DNA of 64,000 bases. Source: an uncultured archaeon. Lineage in GTDB: Archaea; Aenigmatarchaeota; Aenigmatarchaeia; GW2011-AR5. The stretch lies in NCBI GenBank assembly GCA_964373255.1, contig CAYJTG010000002.1:30481-94480 (forward strand). The letters are read 5' to 3'. How positions within the stretch are numbered: the stretch's first letter is position 1; each line of letters opens with the position of its first letter. Under the pieces are notes generated by a model. It saw only the letters and a list, made by a program, of their open reading frames with translations. It did no database searches and was not told where the DNA came from. Shown here piece by piece: positions 23,855-54,689 of the stretch. Both the position numbers and the translations under genes were made by a program.

Positions 23855-24066
23855 AGCCCCAGGGGAGCATCGAACTCCCGACCTCCTGTTTTCTTGTTTC
23901 TTACTTGATTTTCTTTCTAAAAGAAAATCATACGAGACAGGTGCTTTCGGCTTTTTCTACCAATCTCCCCGATCCTTTCTAAATATTTGTGAAATCTATA
24001 GTTTCTTTGGGGTGAAACCTAGACCTTTCTTTACAAAGAAAGGGATCGGTGCTGAGCTACTGAGGC
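23855..24066 (-). tRNA. tRNA-Thr(CGU) with 2-3 introns (212 nt gene)
   Basis: Acceptor GCCTCAG/CTGGGGC (one G-U pair) and T arm GGGAG-TTCGATG-CTCCC. The anticodon arm is CCTGT-CTCGTA[40-nt intron]A-ACAGG. An 86-nt intron sits in the D loop after GCTCAGC. A possible 11-nt insert splits the D-stem 3' strand (GA|AAAAGCCGAAA|GC). The lengths add up: 75+86+11+40=212. Confidence 0.8.
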
Positions 24067-24261
24067 GTTTTGCTACTCTATTTCTCAATATTCACTATTA
24101 CTTTTTAAGCATTTCTTTTAAAGTAAATCAAACATTTCGCAAAAGAAGGTCTTGAATCCTCTATTTATGGTATATAAAGAATTTTTAAGGGGAGATAGTA
24201 CGGTAAGAAGAACAGACTGAAGTTGCTTTGCAACTTCTATGTATATGAGGTGTCTTGCGTT

Positions 24262-24552
24262 ATGAAAGAAGTATTTCTGGTAAAAACCGAGAACAAGCAG
24301 AAGGTTGAAGACCTGCTGAAAAAGGACGATGTTGTAAGCAGGGGCAGCATAACTATAAGGACGGCTGCATCCCTGGATATAAAGGAAGAAGGCTATTTTT
24401 TCATACTGGATATGCCCGAATCGTCGCTCAAAATAGCAGAGGGACTTACAAAAGGCATTGCTGAAAAATACAAACACGGAGAAAATATAATAAAAAAAGT
24501 CCAGGAACAGGAAGATTCTGCAATAGAAGGCTTCGGAAATATCCTGGGATAA
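24262..24552 (+). CDS. Hypothetical small protein
   Basis: ATG at 24262 (MKEVFLVKTENKQ...EDSAIEGFGNILG). No family was recognised. Confidence 0.45.
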   Translation: MKEVFLVKTENKQKVEDLLKKDDVVSRGSITIRTAASLDIKEEGYFFILDMPESSLKIAEGLTKGIAEKYKHGENIIKKVQEQEDSAIEGFGNILG

Positions 24553-24565
24553 TTATGGTGGCGCT

Positions 24566-25057
24566 ATGACTTCTGACATATTTGACAATTTGCCTGTGAG
24601 CTCTCTTGACAACTTTCACAAATTTCGCGAGTCGACTTACAATTTTCTCTATTTGTGCAAAGCTTGCGCACGCACCTTCGACTCTGAAAAGTCCATGGAA
24701 ACCTGCAAGTTCTGCGGCAATCCTGTGACAGAGCTGAGAAGCGTAAAAAGAAATAGAGAAGCCTTGAAGGACGGATTCAGAAAAAATATTCGATATAGAT
24801 ATTATTGTCCGACGTGCGAGAAAAATTTCGTAACGACGGAAAAGCTTGCGTTGTGCAATACGTGCCGGACAGACTACCTGCACGTTTATACGTGGGACCT
24901 GCTAAGAAAAAGGGACAGGCTCTACATAAAACTGAACAAAGCGCTGAAGACCGTATTTGAGAATAAGGCCAACAAAGCACAGACAAAGATAACTATAAAA
25001 CGCCCGGTATTTTCTGTTAATTTTTCGAGACCAAAAGAAGAGGTTCCTACTTTTTGA
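24566..25057 (+). CDS. Double zinc-ribbon protein
   Basis: Two CxxC...CxxC pairs are present: CKAC..CKFC and CPTC..CNTC. Confidence 0.55.
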   Translation: MTSDIFDNLPVSSLDNFHKFRESTYNFLYLCKACARTFDSEKSMETCKFCGNPVTELRSVKRNREALKDGFRKNIRYRYYCPTCEKNFVTTEKLALCNTCRTDYLHVYTWDLLRKRDRLYIKLNKALKTVFENKANKAQTKITIKRPVFSVNFSRPKEEVPTF

Positions 25058-25083
25058 TCAAATTTTTTCTAAAGAAGTTTGGA

Positions 25084-25173
25084 TGGGTCCGGGCGGATTC
25101 GAACCGCCGGCCTTCTGCACGTCAAGCAGACGTCATCTGTGGTCTTTGCAGATAACCACTAGACTACGGACCC
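25084..25173 (-). tRNA. tRNA-Val(GAC) with a 17-nt D-loop intron
   Basis: The gene reads GGGTCCG TA GTCT AGTGGTTAT[CTGCAAAGACCACAGAT]GAC G TCTGC-TTGACGT-GCAGA AGGCC GGCGG-TTCGAAT-CCGCC CGGACCC A. The intron forms an ATCTG/CAGAT helix. Confidence 0.85.
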
Positions 25174-25506
25174 TAGTTCTATTTTCATACCGATTCTTAT
25201 TTTTAAATCCGTATTTTTCAGTTCCAGGCAGTATTTTGCTTTCTTGTTTTTGTAAACTTTCCAGGTTTCTGGATTCAACGTAATTGGGACAGCTATCTCG
25301 TTTCCTACTATTCTCATTTTATCATCAAGAAATACCAGATTTAATTTTTTCTTTACAAAAGGCATCCATATAGAATTTGCATAAATCAAGGCACCGTCTT
25401 TATCTTCCAGCTTGTCAAACGTCAAGCCGCGCAAAGAAGAGGCTCCTTTGCAATCCTTTATTTTTAAAATCTTGTTATTTATCTTTAATGCTAGAAACGA
25501 CATCAT
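25159..25506 (-). CDS. DUF192-like protein
   Basis: ATG start. The stretch ..GLTFDKLEDKDGALIYANSIWMPFVKKKLNLVFLDDKMRIVG...YCLELK matches the DUF192 pattern (GL..r....gmlF....fwM.n...pLD..fld..g.i). The last ~15 nt overlap the tRNA-Val 5' end. Confidence 0.65.
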   Translation of the reverse strand: MMSFLALKINNKILKIKDCKGASSLRGLTFDKLEDKDGALIYANSIWMPFVKKKLNLVFLDDKMRIVGNEIAVPITLNPETWKVYKNKKAKYCLELKNTDLKIRIGMKIELGSVV

Positions 25507-25536
25507 AATAATTGTCTACAAAAGAATTAATTATAT

Positions 25537-25627
25537 AGTATCTCCGAAAGTGAGGTATACGCCTCTTGGCGTATACCTCGGTAGAGGATTACTGCCAACA
25601 GGCAGTAATCCAACTTTCGGAGATACT
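25537..25627. repeat. 91-nt three-way nested-hairpin element
   Basis: The outer stem is AGTATCTCCGAAAGT/ACTTTCGGAGATACT. It encloses GAGGTATACGCC-TCTT-GGCGTATACCTC and GGATTACTGCC-AACA-GGCAGTAATCC, all perfect. It sits 30 nt upstream of tRNA-Gly(CCC). Confidence 0.7.
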
Positions 25628-25657
25628 GTTATAGCTCTGTAGAAAACCTATGCAAGA

Positions 25658-25818
25658 GCATCTGTGATCTAGTGCACCTTTCCAGAAAGCTGCACCAAAG
25701 CGGTGAAAGGTGTGGATATTGGTATGATACAAGCTTCCCACAAGCTTTCCAGAAAGCTTGAGCAAAGCGGAAGGCTTGGAGTCAGCTTGATATGCGGGTT
25801 CGATTCCCGCCAGATGCA
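25658..25818 (+). tRNA. tRNA-Gly(CCC) with two introns (D loop ~45 nt; anticodon loop 43 nt)
   Basis: Acceptor GCATCTG/CAGATGC and T arm GCGGG-TTCGATT-CCCGC. The anticodon arm is CAAGC-TTCCCA[43 nt]A-GCTTG. The D arm is ATCT..GGTA TGAT. The two introns share TTTCCAGAAAGCT..AAAGCGG..AAGG. Confidence 0.75.
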
Positions 25819-25895
25819 TCAAGAAAACTGGAAGATGGTTGATCAAGAAAGGTGGAAAAAACTGATTATTAAAATATTGTATAGAAACTATTTGC

Positions 25896-28217
25896 ATGCA
25901 AATCGCTGATCTGCAACTGCACAGCAAGTACAGCCGCGCCACGTCTGGGAAGATGGTTCTCGACGAGCTTGCGAAGTACGCGAAGATCAAGGGCGTCGAT
26001 ATATTAGGCACAGGGGACTTCACACACCCAATTTGGCTGCAAGAGCTGAAGGGCAAATTAGCTGAAAAGAATGCAGGCGTTTACGAATACGACGACGTGA
26101 TGTTTGTTCTTACCGGTGAAATATCCCTGATTTATACGCAGGACGGCAGGCAGAGGCGCGTGCACCATGTAATATTAGCACCTAATTTCTCTGTGGTCGA
26201 CCAGATCAACGAGTGGCTGGACAAAAAAGGCCGCAGGGACTATGACGGCCGGCCTATCTTTGGATTCTCATCAATAGAATTTGTCGAAGCGATGATGTCC
26301 ATATCGAAAGATATAGAAATAATCCCCGCACATTGCTGGACTCCGTGGTACGGAATATTTGGGTCGATGTCAGGTTTCGATTCTCTGGAGGAATGCTTCC
26401 GCGAAAAGGCAAAATACATACACTGCATCGAGACAGGGATGTCTTGCTACGATACCGAGACAGAAGTGCTGACAAATAATGGATGGAAAAAAATCTCGAG
26501 TGTCGGACATTCCGATGAAATTTGTACTTTAGACATTAATACAAATAGAATTGAACTCCAGAAGCCAATTAAATTGTTTAAATATAGTTACAAGGGCAAG
26601 ATGTATAGGTTAAAGACCAAAAGAATTGATCTTTTGGTAACTCCTAACCATAAACTTCTATGTAGCCCTTGTGATTTTAGAAAAAACCCTTCTTTTTCTC
26701 TTAAAGAAGCAGAATTTTTATTTAACAAATCAAAGCGATTTAAGAAAGATGGTATTTGGATTGGTGACAATCCAGAATATTTTGTTATTCCGGCTGTCAA
26801 AATAAAGCATGGAAGCAGATTTTATTCTGGATTTCGAAATAAAGGTGAAAAAAAGTGTCCGATCAAGCCTTGGTTAAGATTCTTCGGTTTTTGGTTGGCA
26901 GAAGGCTGGGCAACAGAAAGCAAAAATGGTGACTATGGGATTTATCTTGCGAATTCGAATCCGGAGATAATTTCTGAGATGAAAAAAATTCTTGAAAGCT
27001 TCGACTACACGGTATATCAATATAAAAATAGAAGCATGGACACAATTAGAGTAAGAGATTATCAATTATTTTCTTATCTTAAACAATTTGGAAAAGCCTC
27101 CGAAAAATTTATTCCTTCAGACATAAAATCATTATCAAAAGAGTTCTTAGAAATCTTATTTGAATTTTACATAAAGGGTGATGGACATAGGTACGGTAGA
27201 AATGGGAAAGGTCTTTCGGCTACCACAATCTCAAAACGTCTTCGTGACGATCTGCAGGAAATCGCGCTAAAAATTGGTATTTCAGCATATTATAAATTGC
27301 ATAACAAGAAAGGTACACCAATTACTTCTCTTCCAAAAGCCAAACTAAAAGGCTATAAACAATCCGAAGATTCGTGGGTAATATATTTCATCAGAAATAA
27401 CATTCATACTGTTTTGCCTTCCACTATCAAGAAATATAATTACATCGAATCTTGGGTCGACTACGACGGTTTTGTATATTGCGTTGAAGTCCCAAACCAT
27501 GTAATTTACATTAGAAGAAATGGTATTCCTGTTTGGTGCGGAAACTCGAATCCTGCGATGAACTGGCGCATTTCTGCTTTGGACAACATCACTCTGACAA
27601 GCAACAGCGACGCGCACTCGCCGTACCCGTGGCGGCTTGGCCGGGAGGCCAATGTATTTGATTTCAAAGAAGTGAATTTTGAAAATATCATAAACGCGTT
27701 TCGTAACAGGAAGGATTTTGCTTACACGATTGAAACAAGCCCGAACTATGGAAAATATCATTATGACGGACACCGGGCGTGCAATTTCTCATGCTCGCCA
27801 GACGAGACAAAGAAGCTCAGTGACGTATGCCCGAAGTGCGGCAAAAAATTAGTTATAGGCGTGCTCAACAGAGTGGAACAACTTGCAGACCGTGATGAAG
27901 GGTTCGTACCAAAGGACGCGATCCCGTTCAGGACTCTGATACCTCTGAGCGAAGTCATCGCTGCCTTTCACGACACTGATGTGTTCACAAAAAAGGTGTG
28001 GGAAATTTACAACAGGCTGATCGACCGTTTTGGCGATGAATTCAATATCCTTCTTAATACGGAAAAAAACGAACTTGAAAAGACGATCGACGAAAAACTG
28101 GCGGCGCTCATAATAAAGAACCGCGAGAACAAGCTGCACGTCGAGCCTGGTTACGATGGTGTATACGGAAAATTAGTTGTCAAAGAGGAAACGGGATTGA
28201 GAAGATTTATAAAATGA
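25896..28217 (+). CDS. PHP-domain endonuclease Q-like protein (EndoQ family) interrupted by an intein
   Basis: The N-extein reads MQIADLQLHSKYSRATS...GTGDFTHP...HHVILAP...PAHCWTPW...ETGMS. The C-extein reads SNPAMNW...LTSNSDAHSPYPWRLGRE...GKYHYDGHRAC...CPKCGKK...PGYDGVYG. This gives PHP metal motifs, a Zn finger and a C-terminal domain, as in archaeal EndoQ. Confidence 0.75.
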   Translation: MQIADLQLHSKYSRATSGKMVLDELAKYAKIKGVDILGTGDFTHPIWLQELKGKLAEKNAGVYEYDDVMFVLTGEISLIYTQDGRQRRVHHVILAPNFSVVDQINEWLDKKGRRDYDGRPIFGFSSIEFVEAMMSISKDIEIIPAHCWTPWYGIFGSMSGFDSLEECFREKAKYIHCIETGMSCYDTETEVLTNNGWKKISSVGHSDEICTLDINTNRIELQKPIKLFKYSYKGKMYRLKTKRIDLLVTPNHKLLCSPCDFRKNPSFSLKEAEFLFNKSKRFKKDGIWIGDNPEYFVIPAVKIKHGSRFYSGFRNKGEKKCPIKPWLRFFGFWLAEGWATESKNGDYGIYLANSNPEIISEMKKILESFDYTVYQYKNRSMDTIRVRDYQLFSYLKQFGKASEKFIPSDIKSLSKEFLEILFEFYIKGDGHRYGRNGKGLSATTISKRLRDDLQEIALKIGISAYYKLHNKKGTPITSLPKAKLKGYKQSEDSWVIYFIRNNIHTVLPSTIKKYNYIESWVDYDGFVYCVEVPNHVIYIRRNGIPVWCGNSNPAMNWRISALDNITLTSNSDAHSPYPWRLGREANVFDFKEVNFENIINAFRNRKDFAYTIETSPNYGKYHYDGHRACNFSCSPDETKKLSDVCPKCGKKLVIGVLNRVEQLADRDEGFVPKDAIPFRTLIPLSEVIAAFHDTDVFTKKVWEIYNRLIDRFGDEFNILLNTEKNELEKTIDEKLAALIIKNRENKLHVEPGYDGVYGKLVVKEETGLRRFIK
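26445..27545 (+). mobile_element. Intein (367 aa) with LAGLIDADG homing-endonuclease domain
   Basis: Block A is CYDTETEVLTNNGW and block B is LLVTPNHKLL. The LAGLIDADG motifs are LRFFGFWLAEGWA and LEILFEFYIKGDGH. The C-terminus is VYCVEVPNHVIYI..GIPVWCGN followed by the +1 Ser. It is in frame (26445 and 27546 share the host frame) and visibly more AT-rich than the exteins. Confidence 0.85.
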
Positions 28218-28225
28218 ATGCCTTT

Positions 28226-28357
28226 GATTGAATTCCATGTTCGTATGATGATCGTCAGCGTAGCGATATACGTCTTTTGACGTATACCGCAGCTAGCACC
28301 ATCGCCAGAAAGGCGATGGTGCTCACGCTGACGATCATACTTTAATGGAATTCAATC
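28226..28357. mobile_element. MITE-like nested-hairpin element with 8-bp TSD ATGCCTTT
   Basis: The termini are GATTGAATTCCAT.../...ATGGAATTCAATC. The second stem is GTATGATGATCGTCAGCGT/ACGCTGACGATCATAC. The internal hairpins are GATATACGTC-TTTT-GACGTATAC and AGCACCATCGCC-AGAA-AGGCGATGGTGCT, joined by AGCT. Exact ATGCCTTT copies lie at 28218-28225 and 28358-28365. Confidence 0.8.
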
Positions 28358-28364
28358 ATGCCTT

Positions 28365-29981: not shown

Positions 29982-30953
29982 TTATTTTCCCTGCACACTG
30001 ACCGTTGCGGTTGCGTCAACGTAGTACCTGTAAAACAGCTCGAACACGAGCTGTACCCTGTCTTCCGGCCTGCTGCCCCACGCTGACTTGTCTATACCTA
30101 TCATGCAGCCAATGGTGTACGTCCCGTCCTGGCGCAGCCTCACCAATATATCAGTGGAATCAAGATCGATTTCATTTCCGCTTGTTACGCCAAGGCATTC
30201 ATCAAAGTGCGGGTTGCCTGCGCCCAGCAATGTTATCTTTCCGCTGATCTTACCGCCTGTGCCACGAATGGCCGGGTCGTCCTCCAGCGTGATTGGGAAG
30301 CCGTCGCCGCCGTTGCTGAATATTATGCGCAGAGGCCATTCCTGGTCGTCACTTTCCGTGTCTGCGGTATCGACGTGTATGGGTAAGAAGCCTTTCGCAC
30401 TGTCAACCAAAATTTTTATAGGGCCTGCACTGCCCGAGAATGTGGGCGACGGCAGCGCCTGGTTGTTTGATTCTCTTATCGTTATTTCATTCTCGCTCAG
30501 CGCCGGTATATCGATGATGCCGTTTGTGGCATAATCATAAGTCACGCGCGCCGTTACAGTAGCAGCGTACGGGATTCCCTGAGGCACGTCAGGCGTCATG
30601 AGCCGATACTGGACAAGCTTGAACTGGCCTGGAACGCCACGTCCGACATCAGGCGGCTTCAAAGTCCCGAGCTCTTTTGTCAGCGTGTCTGGTATAGGAT
30701 TGCCTGTGGAATCTCTCCACTGATTTTCAACGCCGTACAGGTCTATCTGCGCTTCTTTTGCAGTTGTCCCGCCTATATTTTCAACCTCGATATCAAAAAG
30801 CACCAATTCGCCGGACCTGACAGACGCCGGGTCTGCGTTGAAGCTGTTTATGGTGAGCCCGCGGTTCGGGTCAGTAGTGACAGGCCTGTCTCCTCCGGTG
30901 CAGCCGGAAATAATCACAACCGCAGCAAGAAGAACCAACAGGTATTTTTTCAT
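29982..30953 (-). CDS. Lipobox surface protein, paralog 2
   Basis: ATG start and MKKYLLVLLAAVVIISGC. Sequence NSFNADPASVRSGELVLFDIEVENIGGTTA...RVTYDYATNGIIDIPAL...FELFYRYYVDATATVSVQGK. Confidence 0.8.
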   Translation of the reverse strand: MKKYLLVLLAAVVIISGCTGGDRPVTTDPNRGLTINSFNADPASVRSGELVLFDIEVENIGGTTAKEAQIDLYGVENQWRDSTGNPIPDTLTKELGTLKPPDVGRGVPGQFKLVQYRLMTPDVPQGIPYAATVTARVTYDYATNGIIDIPALSENEITIRESNNQALPSPTFSGSAGPIKILVDSAKGFLPIHVDTADTESDDQEWPLRIIFSNGGDGFPITLEDDPAIRGTGGKISGKITLLGAGNPHFDECLGVTSGNEIDLDSTDILVRLRQDGTYTIGCMIGIDKSAWGSRPEDRVQLVFELFYRYYVDATATVSVQGK

Positions 30954-44525: not shown

Positions 44526-45404
44526 TTAATATACCGTCATGCCTGTGTACGGCTGCATAGCTGTGACAACGCCTGTCTGATTGATCGTCTCTGGAAATTG
44601 TGCAAGGAACACGACAACTACGGCAGCAGAGCCGCTGAACATGGAGTTGTCGCCTGCCTTGAACGTGATTATGTTGTCGCCCAGTCTCAGGTCTGATTTG
44701 TCCAATCGTATGCTCTGCAGGTCGGCGACAGGGCTTTCCCAGACGTTTATTCCGTTAATATCAACTACCAGCGTGCCTACGTTCTCTGTCATGTTCAAAT
44801 CTATTTTCGAGAACTGAAGATTGAGATACTCTTCGCCTAAGTAAAACCTGAACTGGCTGAAGTCATTTTCGAAGCTTGCGTAGTTTACAGTAACGTCGCT
44901 AAGCTTGTATAAATTAGGTGCCCAGATACGCCAGAAAGATGATTCTGGAAATACCTCTATCACGGCTTTTTCTGATAACATGCTGCTGTCTATGGATATT
45001 TCATAGTCGCCAGGGTCGAAAACCCTGCTTTCGATAATTTTCCCGTTGACGCTGATTATGAGCTTGCCGATGTCGTTATTGGACAAAACGGTGAATTTTA
45101 CAGAAGCCGCCTGCAGTCCGGACTTTCTCAGTTCGTACGTTATTTTCTCTTCGCCAAACAGCAGACCGTTCTTTAATTCCTTGTCGCCCAGGTCGATGGA
45201 ATTTGCCTGCAAAACGTCACTTGCTGCGAAAGCTGGTATATAGAAGACCTTTACCGCCTCGATTATGCCTAGATTCCTTGTCTTGTTTTCCGGGCATCTG
45301 TCACTGGTGCACGTACCAACGTATGCGCTGAATGCAGCCAGAAGTATCGCTAATATCATCAGGCCAACTACAAGAAAATACACAAATTCATTATTGCCTT
45401 TCAT
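44526..45404 (-). CDS. N-terminally anchored extracytoplasmic protein (possible class-III/pilin-like signal)
   Basis: ATG at 45404 (TTG at 45410). MKGNNEFVYFLVVGLMILAILLAAF has a short charged head ending in KG followed by a long hydrophobic helix. Confidence 0.55.
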   Translation of the reverse strand: MKGNNEFVYFLVVGLMILAILLAAFSAYVGTCTSDRCPENKTRNLGIIEAVKVFYIPAFAASDVLQANSIDLGDKELKNGLLFGEEKITYELRKSGLQAASVKFTVLSNNDIGKLIISVNGKIIESRVFDPGDYEISIDSSMLSEKAVIEVFPESSFWRIWAPNLYKLSDVTVNYASFENDFSQFRFYLGEEYLNLQFSKIDLNMTENVGTLVVDINGINVWESPVADLQSIRLDKSDLRLGDNIITFKAGDNSMFSGSAAVVVVFLAQFPETINQTGVVTAMQPYTGMTVY

Positions 45405-45410
45405 TACCAA

Positions 45411-45472
45411 TCCCTTTTCTTAAAAGAAAAGGTCTAGGTTTTATCCCAAAAGAATGGGGGTTCTTCTAGACC
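45411..45472. repeat. Intergenic copy of a tRNA-intron-like sequence
   Basis: TCCCTTTTCTTAAAAGAAAAGGTCTAGGTTTTATCCCAAAAGAA compares with the tRNA-Thr D-loop intron TCCCTTTCTTTGTAAAGAAAGGTCTAGGTTTCACCCCAAAGAAA (about 80% identity over ~44 nt by eye). Confidence 0.75.
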
Positions 45473-45593: not shown

Positions 45594-46781
45594 ATGATGG
45601 ACAGAAGAGAATTTCTGAACTATATGTGTGCACTTGTAGCGACGACGCCGGCTGCGGCTATGGCGTCACCTGTTAGGAATACGGCTGTGTACGCCGCTGC
45701 AAGAAGATACGATTTTCTGACAACTCCTGTATATGATTCGATATACGATCCTATAGGAGAGAACGCAGAAAATATAGCCATGGAGCTCTATCCGAACTCA
45801 TTGCAGGACCTCGTCAGCAAGGGAATAATTACATCGGGCATAAAAGACCTTTCGTTTCCACTTGGGATAAGATACCAGCACAATGGCGGGGAAAGGAAAA
45901 GGGTGGATTTCTACCGCGGGATGCGCGACATGTGGAACGCGAAGCCGGGAATAAAAGGCAGCAGGGCGCTGAAAAGCCAGAGGGATGGGTTCCTGAAAAA
46001 AATCAAGCATGAAAAAAAATCAAGCCTTCGCGAATACAGAAGGAATGAAATAGCGCACGGCATTGAAGTTGCCGGGGAGATCCGGAAAAATATAGACCAA
46101 ACCTATAAAGGCGAGATGGCAAGATTTGCAAGAAACGCTGCAGAAAAGCTTTCGTCAAACGTTTTGCTGGGGTACAATATACATGAAATAACGCCGCCAA
46201 GCTACAACGGCAGGCAGATAAACCCTGTCTTCAAGGCTTATTTTGTCGACCGCTTATTCAAGGAAGCCGGCAAGGAGTTCATAGAAGGCTATCCGGCAAG
46301 GTACGACCCTTACATGAGCTTCGGGCCGTTCCAGATGACAAACTTTGCAATGCCTGTTGCAGCCGGCTTAAACCGGCATGTCGGCAAAGAAGATAGGATT
46401 CCGTATAATGTGCAGGACTTAGAAGGGCTGCAGGACCACGTAAACGCAGCTGTCATGTTTGCACTGTCAAATTTCGTGTCGCTTGGAAATCATCTTTCAG
46501 GGCGCAAGCTCCTGAAAAAGTTCAACGACGGCTTTGAGAAGATGGACGAGCGCAGCCAGCAGATAGTTATATCGGGCACAACGGCCTGCATGCACCACCA
46601 GCCTTCAATAACAAAAAAAAGGATAGGATTCTACGTCGACAAAAAGCCTATGGATGACATGTTCTACAAGATACGTCCATCGCTGACAGACCAGTTGCAA
46701 AAGTACTACGACAGCGCAGCAGAGGCGTATCTGCTGATGAAGGTATTTCACGACCTTGAAGACAAATATTCCAGAGACTAG
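45594..46781 (+). CDS. Secreted protein with twin-arginine (Tat) signal
   Basis: MMDRREFLNYMCALVATTPAAAMASP contains the RREFL Tat motif. The mature part was not recognised. Confidence 0.65.
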   Translation: MMDRREFLNYMCALVATTPAAAMASPVRNTAVYAAARRYDFLTTPVYDSIYDPIGENAENIAMELYPNSLQDLVSKGIITSGIKDLSFPLGIRYQHNGGERKRVDFYRGMRDMWNAKPGIKGSRALKSQRDGFLKKIKHEKKSSLREYRRNEIAHGIEVAGEIRKNIDQTYKGEMARFARNAAEKLSSNVLLGYNIHEITPPSYNGRQINPVFKAYFVDRLFKEAGKEFIEGYPARYDPYMSFGPFQMTNFAMPVAAGLNRHVGKEDRIPYNVQDLEGLQDHVNAAVMFALSNFVSLGNHLSGRKLLKKFNDGFEKMDERSQQIVISGTTACMHHQPSITKKRIGFYVDKKPMDDMFYKIRPSLTDQLQKYYDSAAEAYLLMKVFHDLEDKYSRD

Positions 46782-46792: not shown

Positions 46793-47082
46793 TGCGAGGG
46801 GGCGGATTCGAACCGCCGAACGGACTAACCGACAAGATAGCTCAAACGGTCATATAATAATCGTTTGCTAATAAATCGATTTCTTGAGTTTCACAGTCAT
46901 CTAAGCTTCTTTAGAAAAGAAGCTTAATCAAGAAACTTCTTTTCTTTCAACGCTTATCTTAACTCAATGACACTTGCGCCTTTGACCAGATTTCCATACC
47001 TTCTCTTCATAATACAGCTTTACCATAATTTCTTTTGGTATAGCTTTTCTTTTGAAAGAAAAGGTATCTTGGCTACCCTCGC
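46793..47082 (-). tRNA. Class II tRNA, probable tRNA-Leu(CAA), with three introns (290-nt gene)
   Basis: The 5' part is GCGAGGG TA GCC AAG[77 nt]TCTGGTCAAA GGC G CAAG[83 nt]. Next come ACTCAAGA[44 nt]TCTTG and T CGGTTAGTCCG TTC. The 3' part is GGCGG-TTCGAAT-CCGCC CCCTCGC A. The lengths add up (86+204=290). The isotype depends on an 8-nt micro-exon. Confidence 0.7.
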
Positions 47083-47602: not shown

Positions 47603-47663
47603 CTATAATCATCCCTGAAGTTTATTATGGACTATGAAATATATATAGCTAAATGAATGTTGA

Positions 47664-47778
47664 CATTATCAACTTAACGGCTGTTGTCAAAGCATATAGA
47701 CGCACTTCGTGAGTCAGTTTGTTTCAACAGCCTTTTCTGGGTGATTAGCTGTTGCTAATCACCCTTAAGTTGATAGTG
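47664..47778. mobile_element. MITE-like nested-hairpin element (CAACTTAA family, inverted relative to 49480)
   Basis: The terminal stem is CATTATCAACTTAA/TTAAGTTGATAGTG. The hairpins are GGCTGTTG..CAACAGCC and GGGTGATTAGC-TGTT-GCTAATCACCC. The first contains TAGACGCACTTCGTGAGTCAGTTTGTT, which is shared with 32180. No clear TSD was found. Confidence 0.65.
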
Positions 47779-47785: not shown

Positions 47786-47932
47786 TGCGGTAGCCGGGAT
47801 TCGAACCCGAATCGCAACCTTGGCAAGGTTGTATCCTACCATTATCCATTTTCTTGGTTCTGTTGGTTCTTTTGGTTCTGTTGGTTCTTTTGATTAAACT
47901 TTTCTTCCAAGAAAAGTTTAGACTACTACCGC
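47786..47932 (-). tRNA. tRNA-Gly(GCC) with a ~75-nt D-loop intron
   Basis: Acceptor GCGGTAG/CTACCGC. The D arm is GTCT AA[intron]TGGTA GGAT. The anticodon arm is CAACC-TTGCCAA-GGTTG and the T arm TCGGG-TTCGAAT-CCCGG. The intron contains a tandem 18-nt repeat. Confidence 0.8.
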
Positions 47933-49285: not shown

Positions 49286-49337
49286 AACAGATATATGGAA
49301 AACAGGCAAATAAATAGAATAAGGTGCTTGTTGTATT

Positions 49338-49505
49338 ATGAAAAAATATTCAAAGCAGTGTCCGGTTTGTAAATCCGTGAATATTACGTGGTACGCAGGT
49401 GGTGTAACTGGGAATTACGAATGCAAGGGGTGCGGGTACGTTGGAATTCTTGTTCTGGAAGTTGTAGAAGACGACAAAAGGCAACGTCAACTTAAGGGTG
49501 GTTAG
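49338..49505 (+). CDS. Zinc-ribbon mini-protein (55 aa)
   Basis: It falls below the track cutoff. Sequence MKKYSKQCPVCKSVNITWYAGGVTGNYECKGCGYVG... The last 26 nt and the stop lie inside the element at 49480. Confidence 0.4.
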   Translation: MKKYSKQCPVCKSVNITWYAGGVTGNYECKGCGYVGILVLEVVEDDKRQRQLKGG

Positions 49506-49568
49506 CTGTTGCTAACCACCCAGAAAAGGCTGTTGCCGATAGGCAACAGCCGTTAAGTTGACGATGCC
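49480..49568. mobile_element. MITE-like nested-hairpin element (CAACTTAA family)
   Basis: The terminal stem is GGCAACGTCAACTTAA/TTAAGTTGACGATGCC. The hairpins are GGGTGGTTAGC-TGTT-GCTAACCACCC and GGCTGTTGCC-GATA-GGCAACAGCC, joined by AGAAAA. The flanks match only weakly. Confidence 0.7.
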
Positions 49569-49619: not shown

Positions 49620-49779
49620 GCCGGCGTAGTCTAACCTGGTAAGTCGCTAGTCTCGAAAACTAGTGCCCTTCGGGGCTTGCAGGTTCAAAGCCGAGGAAGG
49701 ATATCCTTCCTAAGGCATTACCATCCTTAGGTGGGCTCCGCAGATATTATCTGACTCGGGGGAATTCCTGCCGCCGGCG
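49620..49779 (+). tRNA. tRNA-Ser(CGA) with a 76-nt T-loop intron
   Basis: Acceptor GCCGGCG/CGCCGGC with discriminator G. The anticodon arm is CTAGT-CTCGAAA-ACTAG and the long variable arm is TGCCCTTCGGGGCTT. The T arm is GCAGG-TTCAAA[76 nt]T-CCTGC. Confidence 0.8.
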
Positions 49780-49847
49780 CTTTCTTTTTAAAATACTAAT
49801 TCTAATTTACTGTAAACCCACTAAATAATCAGGACATAATTCCACAT

Positions 49848-49972
49848 GCCGGCTTGGCAGAACTAGGTAAATGCACGTGCCTTGAGTAAATTTTTTAGAA
49901 AAAAGTTTAATCAAAAAACAAGGTCAGCACGAGTGGCTCCGCCACACGCAGGTTCAAATCCTGCAGCCGGCG
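49848..49972 (+). tRNA. tRNA-Ser(UGA) with a 39-nt canonical (37/38) intron
   Basis: Acceptor GCCGGCT/AGCCGGC. The anticodon arm is CGTGC-CTTGAG[39 nt]A-GCACG. The variable arm is AGTGGCTCCGCCACAC and the T arm GCAGG-TTCAAAT-CCTGC. The lengths add up (86+39=125). Confidence 0.85.
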
Positions 49973-50037
49973 CTTATAATCCCAAGAATCCCAAGAAGGG
50001 GCAAGGAACAAAGCTTTTAAAAATAGAAATTTGTATT

Positions 50038-50565
50038 ATGAGTATGGAAAATGATTTTTACCGCCAGCTGGGAACAGGCGTTGCCAGCCTAACATTCGGT
50101 GTAGCGCTTTCGATATTTATTTATGCGGCTGCGTCTGGAATAGCAAGCACGACGCAAGCGTGGCTGCTTTTCGGGGCTTCGTTTTTGATTATGCTCAGGT
50201 TCTGGTGGCGATACAATGAACTCTTTGTGCAGTTTTTGCCATCAAAAACATTCTGGCATTTCCTGTTTGATTTCTTGATTTCATTTTTTGGCATACTGGC
50301 CGTGCTTTCTGTAAACAATATACAGACGTGGGCCGTGATCGGGATGCTGGCAATGATATCCTCTGCTGTCAGATGCGGGCTATCGTGGGATGCCAAAAAA
50401 GACGCAAAGCAAAGGCTTCAAAGGACGCTCTACGGGGCTGTCGGAATGCTTATTATATTTGGCATTGTCTATAGCCTTGCGTCTATCATTGAACACGTTC
50501 TACTGGCAGAAGCCATCTTCGTGATAGTCTTAATTTTTGTTATTTACTCCTCTAAAAAGAACTAA
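50038..50565 (+). CDS. Polytopic membrane protein
   Basis: The track ORF (49882) overlaps tRNA-Ser(UGA). The ATG at 50038 gives MSMENDFYRQLG.. followed by about five TM helices. Confidence 0.6.
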   Translation: MSMENDFYRQLGTGVASLTFGVALSIFIYAAASGIASTTQAWLLFGASFLIMLRFWWRYNELFVQFLPSKTFWHFLFDFLISFFGILAVLSVNNIQTWAVIGMLAMISSAVRCGLSWDAKKDAKQRLQRTLYGAVGMLIIFGIVYSLASIIEHVLLAEAIFVIVLIFVIYSSKKN

Positions 50566-50876
50566 ATCGTTTTTGTATTTTGTTTTATGAGAAATCTGCA
50601 TATACTGTAGAGTTCTGTCTCCAGCGCTGGCTTGTCTATTTTCCCGTTTATGAGCTGCTCGCACAACTGCCTTATTTTACCGGCTAAATTCTGATCAGAC
50701 ATCATTTTATTCGCGCCGCGGATCTGCCGCAGGTACTGTGAAACAGCGGGCTGCGTTACGCCAAGCATGTTAGAGATCTCTGTCTGATTCAGTTTGTAAG
50801 AATTAGCTAATTCTCGGGCCATCTTAGCCCTCACAGAAGGCAGCAATTCTGCGATTTTCTCGATTTCAAGCTTCAT
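50562..50876 (-). CDS. XRE-type helix-turn-helix regulator
   Basis: ATG at 50876 (MKLEIEKI..). LNQTEISNMLGVTQPAVSQYLRQIRG is a classic HTH. The longer TTG-start version would run into a repeat remnant. Confidence 0.7.
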   Translation of the reverse strand: MKLEIEKIAELLPSVRAKMARELANSYKLNQTEISNMLGVTQPAVSQYLRQIRGANKMMSDQNLAGKIRQLCEQLINGKIDKPALETELYSICRFLIKQNTKTI

Positions 50877-50916
50877 AGCTATCGTAAATGTTATTGGTGG
50901 CAGAACTTTTTTATAA

Positions 50917-50952
50917 GCAATTGATGCTATTTCACAGGTTTTCAACAGAGCC
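50917..50952. repeat. Remnant (one arm) of the GGCTCTGTTGAAA MITE family
   Basis: ..gcaattgatgctatttcacaggttttcaacagagcc compares with acgtcgatgctttttcataggttttcaacagagcc at 31166-31200. No partner arm is present. Confidence 0.6.
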
Positions 50953-50959
50953 GTTTCTA

Positions 50960-51787
50960 TTACTCTTCAAATCTAGAAAAAAGCTTTATAGCGAAATGTG
51001 TGAACAACCCGCCTATGTTTGAGAAGACAAGATTTCGAAAGAACTCCATGATTACCCAGAAGCTGAACCCGGAAATCAGCGGTAGCCAGCGGAAATAGGC
51101 ATTGAAAATTTTGGAATCTTCGATGGACGATGATATTTGGTTCTCAACAAGGTCTTTCCCCAATAACTGCGCCTCTGGTGGCAATGACTCCAGGGCGATG
51201 GTCGTCATGGTCTCTGTGAGATCCTGGCGAAAGCTTGCCTGATAGTACTGCATGCCGAGAAGCACAGCAAACAATATGCCCAACGCCATCAGTATATTGG
51301 TTACAAGGAGCGCCTTGCTTACTGAATTCGAGCCGACGCGAAACAAAACCCATTTTTTCAATTCTTTACCGTACGTATTTGAAAGCGGAATCAGAAAAAC
51401 AAACGAAACAAAGGCAGAAGCGGCTATGAACAACCCCATTACCGTAGGAAACAGGATAACGGTCAGCACAACACAGATAGCGCCAATGACAGCGCCGATC
51501 CTTTTGTCTGCTGAGAAGTAACCGTAGCTGCTCACGAACGAAAACGACAGCACAAGAACAATAACAGCAAGGAAGATAGTCGAGAAAGGCGCCAGAACGT
51601 GCAGCAGCGACGAGGCAGTGCCGAGATCTGAGGAGCCCACTATCATCGATTTCAGCAGGGAGTTCTGGAGATTTACGATATAGCCGACAGAGATTCCGCT
51701 ATGCTTCAGAAGAAAAAGGAAAACTACGTAAGCTGCAACGGGCAATACTATTGAAATCTTTTCCAGTGTTTCTAATTTCATGCTCAT
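50960..51787 (-). CDS. Polytopic membrane protein (275 aa)
   Basis: ATG start with about seven hydrophobic helices. No motif was recognised. Confidence 0.6.
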   Translation of the reverse strand: MSMKLETLEKISIVLPVAAYVVFLFLLKHSGISVGYIVNLQNSLLKSMIVGSSDLGTASSLLHVLAPFSTIFLAVIVLVLSFSFVSSYGYFSADKRIGAVIGAICVVLTVILFPTVMGLFIAASAFVSFVFLIPLSNTYGKELKKWVLFRVGSNSVSKALLVTNILMALGILFAVLLGMQYYQASFRQDLTETMTTIALESLPPEAQLLGKDLVENQISSSIEDSKIFNAYFRWLPLISGFSFWVIMEFFRNLVFSNIGGLFTHFAIKLFSRFEE

Positions 51788-51807
51788 TTCCTCAAATTGT
51801 TAATGTT

Positions 51808-53052
51808 TTACTTGGACGACACAGAAACCTTTTGCTGCTTAGCTGTAAACAGCGTTTGCTTCTTTGACGGCCAAAACAAATAAACAATAACTGCTATAGC
51901 AGCTATCACAACAACGTACACCCATATTGGGAGCGGCTCGCCTGCAGACGGCGGTTGACCTGTGTCGTCAATCGCCTCTTGGAATCTTACGTTTGCAACC
52001 TTATCGTTAAACTCGGACATCAGGTTTTTTACCTCGTCCAATACAAGCTTTGCGTTGAAGTAATCGCCGTTGTCTATGTACGCCTGGCTCTGGTTCATCT
52101 TGCTCCTGATTGTATCAAGCAGTGACCTCAGGGCCTGGACGTCCTCGGCAGTGGCATTTCTGTTTTCAAGGTCGGTAATATTTGTGTCAAGCGGGTCTGT
52201 TAGCAGCTTATAATCTAGATACGTCTGGTTAATGACAACGTACGTACTGGCGCTTGGCGTGACATTTATGCCCAGCGTGGTCGAATTCCTGGCGCCTGTC
52301 TCATTCGTTGTGACATTTATGACTGCAACGTAAGCCTTTACTTCTGCGTCTATAGGGACAGCAATGCTTATGTTGAACGACCTTGAACCACCAAGCGGTA
52401 TAGAAGGGATGGATGATGGGTCTATGCTGTACCACGCGGTGCTTACGCCTGTTATGGAAAGTATCGCAGATGATAATGCCCTGGAACCGGTGTTCTTCAC
52501 CGTTGCCGACACGGCTGCTGATTTGCCCTGAACAATGGTAAGCGATGACGCATTAAGCGTCAGGCTGATCGACGCCTTTGTAGTCGTTGTGTTTGTGGTT
52601 GTTGATGAAGATGTCGTGGTTGTTGTGGTCGACGATGGCGTTGAACACGTGCCAGAACTGCACGTCTGCCCGGATGAACAGCTTGTCACAGAAGACCAGG
52701 TACCGCTTGAGCACGACCTGTATGTCGTGTTTGTTATGCATATATTGCTGCCGGTGGACGTGGCATTCCCATCGTGGTAGCAGCCCGTCGTAGAAGACGG
52801 GTAGCACCATCCGACGCTTGAGCCGCTTGCTGTGCCGTCGTAGTCTGAGAAGCATTTGTACGAACTGCAGTCTGCGTCGGAATTGCAGAACTGGACAGTA
52901 TAGCCAAGCAGTCCTGTAACAATCGTCACGTTGGAAACAGAATTTCCACTGGCGTTCAATACGCCGACCACTTCTGATAAAGAAGGGGAAGAAAATGCAA
53001 GTATTGACAAAAGAACGTATAGGACCTGATATGGTTTATGCATAATTACCAT
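51808..53052 (-). CDS. Surface protein: Cys-rich N-domain, poly-Ser/Thr linker, C-terminal TM anchor
   Basis: ATGs at 53052 and 53043 (TTG at 53067). Signal ..VLYVLLSILAFSSPSLS, Cys cluster CNSDADCSSYKC...CSSGQTCSSGTC, linker PSSTTTTTTSSSTTTNTTTT, anchor PIWVYVVVIAAIAVIVYLFW. Confidence 0.75.
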   Translation of the reverse strand: MVIMHKPYQVLYVLLSILAFSSPSLSEVVGVLNASGNSVSNVTIVTGLLGYTVQFCNSDADCSSYKCFSDYDGTASGSSVGWCYPSSTTGCYHDGNATSTGSNICITNTTYRSCSSGTWSSVTSCSSGQTCSSGTCSTPSSTTTTTTSSSTTTNTTTTKASISLTLNASSLTIVQGKSAAVSATVKNTGSRALSSAILSITGVSTAWYSIDPSSIPSIPLGGSRSFNISIAVPIDAEVKAYVAVINVTTNETGARNSTTLGINVTPSASTYVVINQTYLDYKLLTDPLDTNITDLENRNATAEDVQALRSLLDTIRSKMNQSQAYIDNGDYFNAKLVLDEVKNLMSEFNDKVANVRFQEAIDDTGQPPSAGEPLPIWVYVVVIAAIAVIVYLFWPSKKQTLFTAKQQKVSVSSK

Positions 53053-53110
53053 CTCTATGCAAGGCAATAAGAAATTCGGATCAAAACTTTCCTGATCAGC
53101 CTCGAAAATC

Positions 53111-54406
53111 TTAAGCAGCTGACCTAAATAACATGCTGTAAGTCGTGTACCACGTAGCTGATATTGGTGTGCTTGTCGGAATAATCATTCTCAAGAATAT
53201 TGTAATCAGGCCAGACGTGCTTGTGTACGACAGGCCCTGAGTAAGATTATATTCATTTGTAATGTTGAATTTGCTTGTTGTGTTGAAGTCCGACGATGAC
53301 CGCAGGGTAGCGTAGGACGTATTGCCGCTCGACAGCGACATATTCTGCCCGCTGGAATCGCTCCAGTTTGTCATCTTGAACTGCAGAAGGCCCGTGACCG
53401 TGTCTGTTACATTTACAGTGAAATTGAATTCCCAGTAATCTGTGTTATTGACGATGGCGGCGACTTTCATCGCGCCCACGCTTGTCACATTAAGAAGCTG
53501 CTTTGTCGTGACGTTTGTCTGGTTGTTATTTACTGGGTCTGTGGCGACATTAGTAAGATTTGAACCTGTGATGGTTGATGTAAACAAACCGGAAGCTGCT
53601 CCAGATGTATTTACTGTGAAATACAACTTTACAGGACTTGGCGTAGGTGTATTAAGCGTGACATTTATCTGGGATGCTGTTGTGGCGTTTGAAACGCCGG
53701 TTGTAGAGTTCGTTCCATCGTGCTCTATAATGCTTAGTGCAACAAGCGGGTACGATGTTGGCAAAGCCAGCGTTAGGTTGCTAATCGTATCTGTACCTGT
53801 AGGCGTGAACGTATAAACAAAACTCTGGTTAATCACATTTGTGTCCACAATTCTCGGCGTTATCGACGCATTTGCATGAACGTCCTGTATCTGCGATGCA
53901 GAAGAATTTGAGAATCCTGACACTATCGTAACATTTGTTCCGTTATCTACCTGCACTATCCCGATTTCCACTGTGCCGTTTATCTGGACCGATACAACGG
54001 TACGTGGCGTTGCAGTCGAAGACACGTTTATTGCAATTATCAACGACCTGTTTGTCCCGCTTGTAATATTTAATCCATTTGGTATGTAAAGAGTAAATTT
54101 TGCCATTGTGTTATTTGTAGCACTGGCGGCGGTGGAATTTGCTATCAATACCGCACCGGTTGAATTTACGATTGATACAGCTGATATATTACCTGTTGAT
54201 AGGTTTCCGATAGATACATTTATTGCAGTTAGATTAGAGTCGCCGCCGTAAGAGCCAAACGTGAGGTTTAACATATTCGTTTGGTTTCTTGTATTGATGT
54301 ATGCCGGAGCCATATTTGCACTGCTGACGTTCAGGTTGCCGGCTGCGAAGACCGGTGAAACAGCAAGAACGAACAAAGCCGCTGCTAAAATTATTACGAA
54401 TCTCAT
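53111..54406 (-). CDS. Secreted sequon-rich protein related to the repeat unit of the 2687-aa protein
   Basis: The ATG at 54406 gives MRFVIILAAALFVLAVSPVFA. The stretch ..NLTAINVSIGNLSTGNISAVSIVNSTGA..NRSLIIAINVSSTA.. resembles the NIT..G...DI.AV.L.N.S repeat logic. Confidence 0.75.
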   Translation of the reverse strand: MRFVIILAAALFVLAVSPVFAAGNLNVSSANMAPAYINTRNQTNMLNLTFGSYGGDSNLTAINVSIGNLSTGNISAVSIVNSTGAVLIANSTAASATNNTMAKFTLYIPNGLNITSGTNRSLIIAINVSSTATPRTVVSVQINGTVEIGIVQVDNGTNVTIVSGFSNSSASQIQDVHANASITPRIVDTNVINQSFVYTFTPTGTDTISNLTLALPTSYPLVALSIIEHDGTNSTTGVSNATTASQINVTLNTPTPSPVKLYFTVNTSGAASGLFTSTITGSNLTNVATDPVNNNQTNVTTKQLLNVTSVGAMKVAAIVNNTDYWEFNFTVNVTDTVTGLLQFKMTNWSDSSGQNMSLSSGNTSYATLRSSSDFNTTSKFNITNEYNLTQGLSYTSTSGLITIFLRMIIPTSTPISATWYTTYSMLFRSAA

Positions 54407-54470
54407 TTCAATCAAGTAAATTATATGCCCAGATTAATATAAAGCTAATTCTATATTTGTAATTATTAAG

Positions 54471-54689
54471 CGCTCCCGGCGCGAATATCGACAAATCTCT
54501 GTTCTTTTTTTCCTTTTCTTTAGGACATACAAAGACCTTTCTTTTTGGAAAAGAAAGGGATTTGTTTTCGAACGCGCGACCCCTTGCTTTCACACTTGAC
54601 GGAGTCATCATTTCGCAGCAAAGCTGCGATCTGTTCACCTCCGTGTCAAGTAGGAGGCAAGTGCTCTATCCAAACTGAGCTACGGAAGC
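54471..54689 (-). tRNA. tRNA-Arg(CCU) with two introns (62 nt at 37/38; 82 nt in the T loop)
   Basis: The 5' part is GCTTCCG TA GCTC AGTTTGGATA GAGC A. The anticodon arm is CTTGC-CTCCTA[62]A-GCAAG, followed by GGGTC. The T arm is GCGCG-TTCGAA[82]T-CGCGC, followed by CGGGAGC G. The lengths add up (75+144=219). Confidence 0.8.

Follow-up and report, generated by a model that had tools for sequence, protein, structure and literature searches.

What the many introns of archaeal tRNA genes have to do with one another, and with intron-like sequence lying outside any tRNA gene, is the question raised by a 64,000-nucleotide (nt) stretch of DNA from an uncultured archaeon of the Aenigmatarchaeota (GCA_964373255.1, contig CAYJTG010000002.1, forward-strand positions 30,481 to 94,480; hereafter the window, numbered from its first letter). 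A first-pass annotation of the window had proposed that its tRNA introns are paralogous across genes and insertion positions, that they fall into several families sharing short hairpin blocks, and that an intergenic copy is a rare glimpse of an intron outside a tRNA gene. Homology between introns, covariation of their structure, occurrence in three genomic settings, and gain, loss and replacement among orthologous tRNA genes have all been observed, and we consider it likely that the 5′ parts of the introns consist of members of a small set of short structured element families copied across tRNA genes and positions, with the intergenic copy belonging to a co-opted class. Most of the families first set apart are one element or superfamily, conserved far beyond this genome.

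Relatedness of the tRNA introns

Nine tRNA genes with 16 introns of the bulge–helix–bulge (BHB) type were mapped in the window; introns are named by gene and by their order along it (i1, i2, i3), and L-numbers denote sampled loci of relatives and other genomes. Against 300 dinucleotide-preserving shuffles per pair, related introns gave z-scores of 6.5–11.6, with no shuffle of any pair reaching the observed score: 11.6 for Thr_i1 and the intergenic copy, 9.0 for Leu_i2 and SerUGA_i1 in reverse orientation, 8.9 for GlyCCC_i1 and GlyCCC_i2, 7.1 for Thr_i1 and Arg_i2, 6.7 for both Thr_i3 with Leu_i1 and GlyGCC_i1 with SerUGA_i1, and 6.5 for Leu_i1 and the intergenic copy. Introns occupy less than 1% of the space searched by blastn-short (both strands, ∼128 kb), and their best non-self matches were other introns or the intergenic copy, at E-values of 2e-6 to 9e-4; examples include Thr_i1 and the intergenic copy (45 nt, 80% identity, E 2e-6), the two tRNA-Gly(CCC) introns (26 nt, 88%, E 1e-4), and SerUGA_i1 with Leu_i2 (E 3e-4) or GlyGCC_i1 (E 4e-4 to 9e-4). 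All strings quoted in the first-pass annotation are present at or near the places it gave, the shared blocks remain intronic rather than exonic after BHB mapping and splicing, and the shuffled controls contradict low-complexity coincidence; the proposed paralogy therefore holds.

Architecture of the main element

The Thr, Arg and intergenic copies were combined into a degenerate pattern, TCCCTTTYYTT-N2-8-AARRAAAGGTCT, which was scanned against one genome per GTDB species, and more than 114 loci were found among the matches listed, where ∼2–7 would be expected by chance from base content; all counts below are lower bounds among these matches. With two exceptions, the matches listed lie in Aenigmatarchaeota, Micrarchaeota, Pacearchaeota, Woesearchaeota, Nanoarchaeota or unclassified archaeal metagenome-assembled genomes (MAGs).

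Alignment of 93 copies, read in tRNA sense, defines a module of ∼55 nt in which the first strand of a helix (P1) is followed by an internal loop, a hairpin (P2), the P1 return strand, a linker of 3–4 nt, and (C/T)CCC with a purine tract. P1 is a variable 5-bp helix with a conserved A:T pair at its end, whereas P2 is a pyrimidine/purine hairpin of 9–10 bp with a free loop of 2–8 nt, its arms reading CC-TTTCTTT or CC-TTTTCTT and, after the loop, AAAGAAA-GG or AAGAAAA-GG. Covariation in P1 is extensive, with 64 distinct combinations, Watson–Crick pairing of 85–97% at the variable positions, and 198 both-side changes versus 82 in shuffles, a number that none of 500 shuffles reached (alignment A1).

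The purine tract that ends the module lay outside the search pattern, and follows the type of hairpin without exception. The tract is AAAAGAA in all 51 copies with a TTTTCTT/AAGAAAA hairpin and AAAGAAA in all 40 with a TTTCTTT/AAAGAAA hairpin, giving concordance in 91 of 91 copies over two variants with no discordant case; a rarer TTCTTTT/AAAAGAA hairpin with an AAGAAAA tract fits the same rule. The register of this third tract reaches 1–2 nt into the loop side, and the distance from the P1 return strand to the tract is fixed at 7–8 nt. Because the tract is the parallel rather than the reverse complement of the pyrimidine arm, and so the mirror image of the purine arm, it reads as the third strand of a triple helix and not as a second Watson–Crick partner; a homopurine/homopyrimidine helix and a covarying third tract in register, the sequence hallmarks of such a structure, are both found. 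The mRNA-sense strand, opposite to the tRNA sense, is predicted to be capable of canonical U.A-U and C+.G-C triples, while on the tRNA-sense strand the purine tract would run parallel to the pyrimidine arm, resembling a purine-motif triplex or loop 3 of an H-type pseudoknot. Rfam 15 gave no overlap with the three full copies in the window (23999–24054, 45402–45457 and 54512–54569) even at E-values up to 10, and no account of the element, of its motif strings or of DPANN intron families was found in the literature.

Elaborations of the module have been seen in several genomes. In ∼12 copies (L025, L052, L060, L064, L070, L076, L090, L092, L095, L098, L110, L116) the linker carries one or two extra perfect hairpins of 20–30 nt, e.g. 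CTCGAGGAAAGCAAAGCTTTCCTGAG, and a similar extra hairpin distinguishes the T-loop intron of tRNA-Arg in L120 from the window Ser(CGA) intron; these extra linker hairpins point to hairpin insertion as a process of its own in such genomes. Some T-loop introns, mostly of Micrarchaeota (L021, L037, L045, L047, L055, L086, L106), contain deeper inside a second occurrence of the third-tract module (A)ACCCCAAA(A)GAAA, in some cases accompanied by GGTCT and the P1 return strand. Four loci of a Micrarchaeota genome, MAG085 (L012, L081, L085, L096), hold the element within a longer unit, …GGGGAGGG…CCCTCCGCGGTTCGGTCCATA-element-…GGGGGAGGGTCAGGA…, present on several contigs, which may represent a larger repeat family or array.

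Copies in the window

Run on the window without filters, R1, a covariance model built for the element, identified three full copies, two degenerate copies and P2-only matches in Thr_i3. The full copy at the 5′ end of Thr_i1 (23999–24054, minus strand; 59.4 bits, E 3e-11) has P1 ACCGA/TAGGT, P2 CCTTTCTTT-GTA-AAGAAAGG and third tract CCCCAAAGAAA; it shares 94% identity over 54 nt with the L013 and L108 copies, and 89% over 62 nt with the D-loop intron of tRNA-Arg in L120. Its counterpart at the 5′ end of Arg_i2 (54512–54569, minus strand; 64.7 bits, E 2e-12; P1 ACAAA/TTTGT) is 93–96% identical over 53–58 nt to L089, a tRNA trailer, to L097, and to L048, which abuts the start codon of S6e. The third is the intergenic copy (45402–45472, plus strand; 61.6 bits, E 1e-11). 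Degenerate copies occur in Leu_i1 (47027–47068, minus strand; 27.2 bits, E 5e-4) and, as a short form, in GlyGCC_i1 (within 47843–47916, minus strand; 20.3 bits, E 0.02). The hairpin said to be common to the Thr D-loop, Arg T-loop and Leu D-loop introns is thus matched by R1 in all three, in degenerate form in Leu.

The GlyGCC_i1 short form reads CTTTTCTT-GG-AAGAAAAG ... TCAAAAGAAC, followed by tandem repeats of the AGAACCAAC type. The block reported as shared by the Gly(GCC) and Ser(UGA) introns is an exact 16-mer, AAAAGTTTAATCAAAA, which covers this short form from the 3′ arm through the P1 return strand and linker to the third tract. Most of the families first described separately thus collapse into one superfamily. 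SerUGA_i1, with the pattern TTTTTT-AG-AAAAAA ... AAAAAA, and the 3′ trailer of tRNA-Val (25051–25080, minus strand), which matches SerUGA_i1 in blastn-short over 30 nt at 87% identity (E 1e-4), look like further decayed short-form copies (TTTTTT / AAAAAA / AAAAAA), and Thr_i3 is probably another decayed copy. The same element is found in D-loop (Thr, Leu, Gly-GCC), T-loop (Arg) and anticodon-loop (Ser-UGA, Thr_i3) introns. The Val trailer copy adjoins the tRNA 3′ end, matching a setting seen at ∼8 other DPANN loci, and the 3′ half of GlyGCC_i1 (47843–47890, minus strand) is a short tandem array, AGAACCAACAGAACCAAAAGAACCAACAGAACCAAG, absent from the orthologous intron of L126.

Two families are distinct from the main element, namely the tRNA-Gly(CCC) pair (family C) and the tRNA-Ser(CGA) intron (family B). 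The alignment claimed for the Gly(CCC) introns is upheld, with a shared core, TTTCCAGAAAGCT-N-CAAAGCGG, and closing stems that can be read in the sequence as differing in a compensating manner (CACC..GGTG versus AAGC..GCTT). The family C core was also found on 22 metagenome contigs, in D-, anticodon- and T-loop positions of at least eight tRNA types. Among its members (L127–L148 and window 25673–25783), the 5 nt preceding TTTCC are repeated before AAAGCGG, the repeats covary (GCACC..GCACC, TAACC..TAACC, CAAGC..TGAGC), and TTTC is matched with AAAG in the parallel-complement manner of the main element; from this repeat and parallel complement, both families may share one architecture.

Three genomic settings across DPANN archaea

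Over at least ∼117 distinct copies, three settings have been distinguished. At least ∼67 copies are associated with tRNA genes, all in tRNA sense, including at least 51 at the 5′ end of T-loop introns, directly after GTTCRAA (position 59/60), with others in D-loop or anticodon-loop introns. Trailer copies, at least ∼8 in number (e.g. L015, L024, L046, L083, L089), lie 1–8 nt after the tRNA 3′ end. The third setting is inverted: here the element, in at least 34 copies, directly adjoins the start codon of an opposite-strand gene, with a spacing between CAT and TCCC of 5–6 nt in nearly all.

Genes beside these start-codon copies, assigned by Pfam, encode ribosomal proteins (S3, S6e, S12, S17e, S3Ae, L2, L19e, L21e), the RNA-polymerase subunits Rpb4 and Rpb5, other proteins such as Spt5, aEF-1beta, prefoldin, RFC, an OB-fold protein, PFOR and a few enzymes, and pilin-like proteins beginning MKG..., for example that of window gene 44526–45404. 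On the gene strand, a conserved A/T-rich box lies ∼75 nt upstream of the ATG in the start-codon class (AATAATATTGAAGACAAGGTCT; box AATAATATT). This box is plausibly the TATA region, in which case the element would form a leader of ∼60–70 nt in the mRNA. Two other roles were considered and rejected: the hairpin loop as a TATA box for leaderless mRNAs, as loops vary freely (GAAA, CCCG, GCG) and P1 covaries, and GGGA or GGGGTGA as a Shine–Dalgarno sequence, the flanking bases not being conserved.

Among the matches listed, the start-codon copies occur only in Aenigmatarchaeota-labelled or unlabelled archaeal MAGs. Aenigmatarchaeota-labelled MAGs hold 15 tRNA copies and 20 start-codon copies, whereas those labelled Micrarchaeota hold 40 and none, a distribution from which intron use looks DPANN-wide and leader use lineage-specific. 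Subfamilies defined by P1 and linker are common to the tRNA and start-codon settings, and movement between settings must therefore have happened at some time.

Gain, loss and replacement of introns among relatives

The tRNA-Arg(CCU) gene, downstream of a PIN-KH ATPase gene, is syntenic in four relatives, and all share a homologous anticodon-loop intron; Arg_i1 is inherited vertically. The other positions of the same gene differ from genome to genome. At the T-loop (59/60), L121 is empty, L118 has a 30-nt intron without the element, the window and L039 have the element-bearing intron, and L120 has a 108-nt intron homologous to the window Ser(CGA) intron (43 nt, 88%, E 1e-7). The D-loop is empty in the window and in L118, bears other D-arm introns in L121, and in L120 is occupied by an intron ∼89% identical to the window Thr D-loop intron. 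Further orthologues show similar turnover, with the Ser(UGA) gene of L126 lacking the 37/38 intron and carrying a short-form element in its T-loop instead, and the His gene of L123 lacking both D-arm introns and having an intron elsewhere; the Gly(GCC) gene of L126 has kept the orthologous D-loop intron with an identical P2 hairpin. Four syntenic regions of ∼20 kb in relatives have one full copy only, versus several in the window.

Similar introns in different tRNAs and positions, together with presence, absence and replacement at orthologous sites, are the marks of a duplicated intron family, and the differences among Arg, Ser and His orthologues in the presence, position and content of introns support duplicative spread, as the first-pass annotation had anticipated from introns that seemed to move between tRNA genes and positions. 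Could old copies instead have stayed in place without any mobility, held by a function such as a protein-binding hairpin or triplex and alike through constraint and vertical descent? The very strong conservation of the element across DPANN phyla would be expected on this account, as would the retention of the third tract and its spacing in both tRNA and start-codon settings, the retention between relatives of the Gly(GCC) D-loop and Arg anticodon-loop introns, and the compensatory change in P1 by which L039 differs from the window while keeping the same Arg T-loop intron. It is nevertheless unlikely, as four different T-loop states and three D-loop states in orthologous tRNA-Arg genes, a T-loop and a D-loop intron in L120 whose homologues sit in the Ser(CGA) and Thr genes of the window, an element at different positions of tRNA-Ser(UGA) in two relatives, and the single copy in syntenic regions where the window has several all argue against it.

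The intergenic copy

The first-pass annotation was right that an intergenic copy exists; its placement at 45411–45472, immediately upstream of a cluster of hydrolase genes, needs amendment. The copy spans ∼45402–45472 and abuts the ATG at 45404 of a minus-strand gene (44526–45404), lying 120–140 nt upstream of a plus-strand gene at 45594. It is of the TTTTCTT type, with the 6-nt spacing to the opposite-strand ATG and the tail and box of the start-codon class, its conserved box reading GACCTTGTCTTCAAAAATTATT, or AATAATTTTTGAAGACAAGGTC on the gene strand. The adjoining gene was called at 292 aa, confirmed in L001 and L002; no orthologues of it were detectable among similar MKG... genes, of which only L006 and L051 match each other. 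Since the copy has every feature of the start-codon class, it is probably a member of that class and not an escaped intron.

A recently escaped or not-yet-captured mobile intron, caught in transposition, would readily account for a 45-nt match at 80% identity that begins at the first nucleotides of the Thr D-loop intron, and for the element subfamilies shared by tRNA and non-tRNA settings. Such an origin is quite improbable given that the copy has the full anatomy (6-nt spacing, TTTTCTT type) of a recurrent, stereotyped class of at least 34 sampled copies, among which it is no rare snapshot, that it carries the conserved GACCTTGTCTTCAA-ATTATT tail, which intron copies are without, and that in four other MAGs a related copy stands before another pilin-like MKG... 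gene. Its sequence is also present in three independent Logan assemblies, and no BHB brackets it on either strand, in a scan that matches tRNA loci no more often than background.

Spread and possible use of the module

The reading that we favour, of structured element families copied among introns, would involve a module that spreads as a unit at the DNA level and persists either where it is harmless, being spliced or trimmed out of the pre-tRNA, or where it is co-opted as a 5′ leader; in Aenigmatarchaeota-like genomes, the inverted module may serve as the 5′ leader of highly expressed genes, triplex-capable on the mRNA strand. A bolder version is put forward tentatively, as something a little short of an even chance, in which this is an undescribed DPANN-wide hairpin and triple-helix element that propagates among tRNA genes by forming the core of BHB introns and has been co-opted, inverted, in Aenigmatarchaeota as a common leader for genes of ribosomal proteins, RNA polymerase and other highly expressed products. 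If true, one sequence would be both a selfish intron core and a gene-expression element, and intron RNA and leader RNA might interact.

Several points weigh against these readings. No transposase, reverse transcriptase or other mobility signature turned up, although transposase linkage of copies was not examined, and no direct repeats indicative of target-site duplication can be seen flanking 120 copies. Gene conversion, or strong functional constraint keeping copies where they are, could account for part of the spread. The short-form copy within Leu_i2 points the other way, breaking the orientation rule. The third tract is kept in 56 of 67 intron copies and 22 of 34 start-codon copies, being kept as well in introns as at start codons and therefore showing no simple decay in introns. 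Counts of G.U versus A.C in P1 favour neither strand as the one selected as RNA. The transcribed strand of start-codon copies is a matter of prediction, as are triplex formation, predicted from covariation, and the excision of introns by the splicing endonuclease at BHB sites. Intron boundaries are accurate to ±1–2 nt, settings were assigned by simple rules and reading by eye, and the sample is skewed to exact matches of one pattern.

A further proposal gives the excised RNAs a role in trans, with introns and trailers pairing with mRNA leaders or titrating a P2-binding protein, thereby coupling tRNA transcription to ribosome synthesis. The opposite orientations of the two settings, tRNA-linked copies lying in tRNA sense and start-codon copies on the opposite strand, would make intron RNA the reverse complement of the leader, and the P2 hairpin is identical in both orientations, as the titration variant would have it; primary sequence, beyond structure, is conserved in all copies, and functions in translation and transcription are over-represented among the adjacent genes. 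The idea is purely inferential and seems improbable: the 40 tRNA copies of Micrarchaeota-labelled MAGs, with no leader copies among the matches listed, indicate that tRNA copies exist without a trans target, P1 and the loops differ between copies, and the orientation of Leu_i2 is the wrong one. Remotest of all is that the likeness of the shared blocks is a coincidence among low-complexity A/T/C-rich hairpins, or that the blocks are relatives of the compound-hairpin miniature inverted-repeat transposable elements (MITEs) with which common ancestry had been suggested, since, homopurine/homopyrimidine-rich as the blocks are, and mosaics of perfect hairpins as both introns and MITE-like elements are, dinucleotide shuffles never reach the observed scores, introns match each other and not the other ∼127 kb searched, the independent third tract is concordant in 91 of 91 copies, and no intron matches the MITE-like hairpins at 25540–25625, 47660–47770 and 49490–49560 (blastn-short, E ≤5).

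These three sites hold compound perfect-hairpin elements, e.g. CAACTTAA-GGGTGGTTAGC..GCTAACCACCC-..-GGCTGTTGCC..GGCAACAGCC-TTAAGTTG, and L118 has one like them downstream of its tRNA-Arg gene. The main element is itself not a MITE by structure, its sole terminal inverted repeat being the variable 5-bp P1, with no direct repeats flanking it.

Relation to known systems

Major-groove RNA triplexes are known from the ENE of MALAT1 and PAN and from the SAM-II, SAM-V and preQ1-II pseudoknots, and A-rich triples are formed by loop 3 of H-type pseudoknots. The element resembles these in having a pyrimidine/purine helix with a third tract in exact register (U.A-U and C+.G-C on the mRNA-sense strand) and differs in lacking any sequence or Rfam relationship to them, in its archaeal host and in being dispersed in multiple copies, the triplex here being predicted from covariation only. 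Repetitive extragenic palindromes (REPs), the IS200/IS605-type palindrome-associated transposable elements (PATEs) and MITEs are likewise short elements based on hairpins, occurring in many copies and in subfamilies scattered over the genome; unlike them, the present element shows no target-site duplication, no associated transposase and no terminal inverted repeats beyond P1, and has a primary sequence conserved across phyla and stereotyped positions relative to splice sites and start codons. To our knowledge, intron ‘transposition’ has been documented so far only in Thermoproteales.

Passages of PMC4033280, drawing on Fujishima et al. 2010, describe similar introns in different tRNAs and positions of Thermoproteales, varying among genomes. 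The window and its relatives share with this order multiple non-canonical BHB introns per tRNA, similar introns across tRNA species and positions, and differences between genomes in the set, whereas the present lineage is DPANN rather than crenarchaeal, and its dominant family is conserved across several phyla, has a defined architecture of P1, P2 and third tract, and occurs also in tRNA trailers and inverted at start codons. For DPANN archaea, a passage of PMC5829648 reports a marked rise in non-canonical and multiple tRNA introns, linked to loop insertions in the endonuclease, and passages of this paper and of PMC3239211 classify endonucleases (ARMAN epsilon2; alpha4 with an L3 loop) and intron positions. 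Many non-canonical and multiple introns in a DPANN genome are a likeness to the lineages with those endonucleases as described there; conserved intron sequence families, or this element, do not feature in these passages. As far as we have found, the pattern of intron duplication is new for DPANN archaea.

A second and very distant lineage thus shows the same intron dynamics, which bears on the open question of how archaeal tRNA introns originate and spread, and here the moving unit has a recognisable conserved architecture, traceable across hundreds of DPANN genomes. As the same unit adjoins start codons of genes central to expression, the evolution of introns becomes linked to signals of gene expression; the element is also a candidate for a natural archaeal triple helix. 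Standard finders miss nearly all tRNA genes of the window, and modelling the element might help in the search for disrupted tRNA genes in DPANN genomes.

tRNA genes and introns of the window

On the unspliced window, ARAGORN found no tRNA genes at default settings and only two with intron options, low thresholds giving noise, and Rfam detected only two, Val and Ser(UGA). As both programs miss nearly all of them, genes were mapped by hand, by reading the loci, scoring BHB geometry, splicing in silico and running ARAGORN on the spliced product; at default settings the program called every one of the nine tRNAs of the window once spliced, and likewise four orthologues. Removal of the introns restores the cloverleaf, as is characteristic of archaeal BHB introns, and 13 of the 16 have 3–4 pairs of the 4-bp central helix with an inner helix of 3–12 bp, most junctions having the canonical BHB spacing, the motif being relaxed in Arg_i1, Thr_i3 and SerUGA_i1. 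A generic full-BHB scan matched tRNA loci and background at an equal rate.

The tRNA-Thr(CGU) gene (23855–24066, minus strand; boundaries ±2 nt), defined by BHB scoring and called tRNA-Thr(cgt) by ARAGORN once spliced, has three introns: Thr_i1 in the D-loop (23963–24050, 88 nt), Thr_i2 in the D-arm (23946–23956, 11 nt) and Thr_i3 at 37/38 (23891–23930, 40 nt). In tRNA-Val(GAC) (25084–25173, minus strand; Rfam tRNA, 59.9 bits; ARAGORN after splicing), a 17-nt D-loop intron (25137–25153) has the central helix GTGG/CCAC, and tRNA-Gly(CCC) (25658–25818, plus strand) is interrupted in the D-loop (25673–25719) and at 37/38 (25741–25783). The tRNA-Leu(CAA) gene (46793–47082, minus strand; ARAGORN after splicing, tRNA-Leu(caa)) also has three, Leu_i1 in the D-loop (46991–47067), Leu_i2 at 30/31 (46890–46972; central helix CGCA/TGTG, inner helix of 5–6 bp, with five pairs, GTCAT/ATGAC, by hand and six by the scan) and Leu_i3 at 38/39 (46839–46882; central helix CTCA/TGAG). 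An alternative reading as Leu(UAA) with four introns was rejected, as the CGCA/TGTG and CTCA/TGAG helices give Leu(CAA) with three; the apparent TAA anticodon arm is a hairpin within Leu_i2.

Single introns are found in tRNA-Gly(GCC) (47786–47932, minus strand; BHB scoring, ARAGORN after splicing), of 74 nt in the D-loop (47843–47916); in tRNA-Ser(CGA) (49620–49779, plus strand; ARAGORN after splicing), the 76-nt family B intron of the T-loop at 59/60 (49690–49765); and in tRNA-Ser(UGA) (49848–49972, plus strand; Rfam tRNA, 46.1 bits; ARAGORN after splicing), of 39 nt at 37/38 (49887–49925). The tRNA-Arg(CCU) gene (54471–54689, minus strand; ARAGORN after splicing) has Arg_i1 in the anticodon loop (54589–54650) and Arg_i2 in the T-loop at 59/60 (54485–54566); a strict BHB cut at the latter, which seemed to leave a 9-nt T-loop, was rejected in favour of a helix shifted to TTCG/CGAT, which fits, and the 59/60 junction is confirmed by the uninterrupted T-loop, TTCGAAT, of the intron-less L121 orthologue. 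Outside the range covered by the first-pass annotation, tRNA-His(GUG) (59847–59980, minus strand), with an encoded G-1, has D-arm introns in the D-loop (59933–59962) and at ∼26/27 (59893–59921), both without the element, with boundaries set by the uninterrupted D-loop, AGCTTGGTA, of the L123 orthologue.

Neighbouring genes

Among named sequences, those most similar to the PIN-KH ATPase encoded upstream of tRNA-Arg (55112–56944, minus strand) come from Candidatus Aenigmarchaeota/Aenigmatarchaeota MAGs, at 70–76% identity, and many other open reading frames of the window have no Pfam match. Beside tRNA-Gly(CCC), a reading frame of 773 aa (25896–28217, plus strand) combines LAGLIDADG and intein-splicing domains, and its host protein therefore contains an intein; the large tRNA synthetase encoded upstream in the relatives L120 and L123 also carries one.

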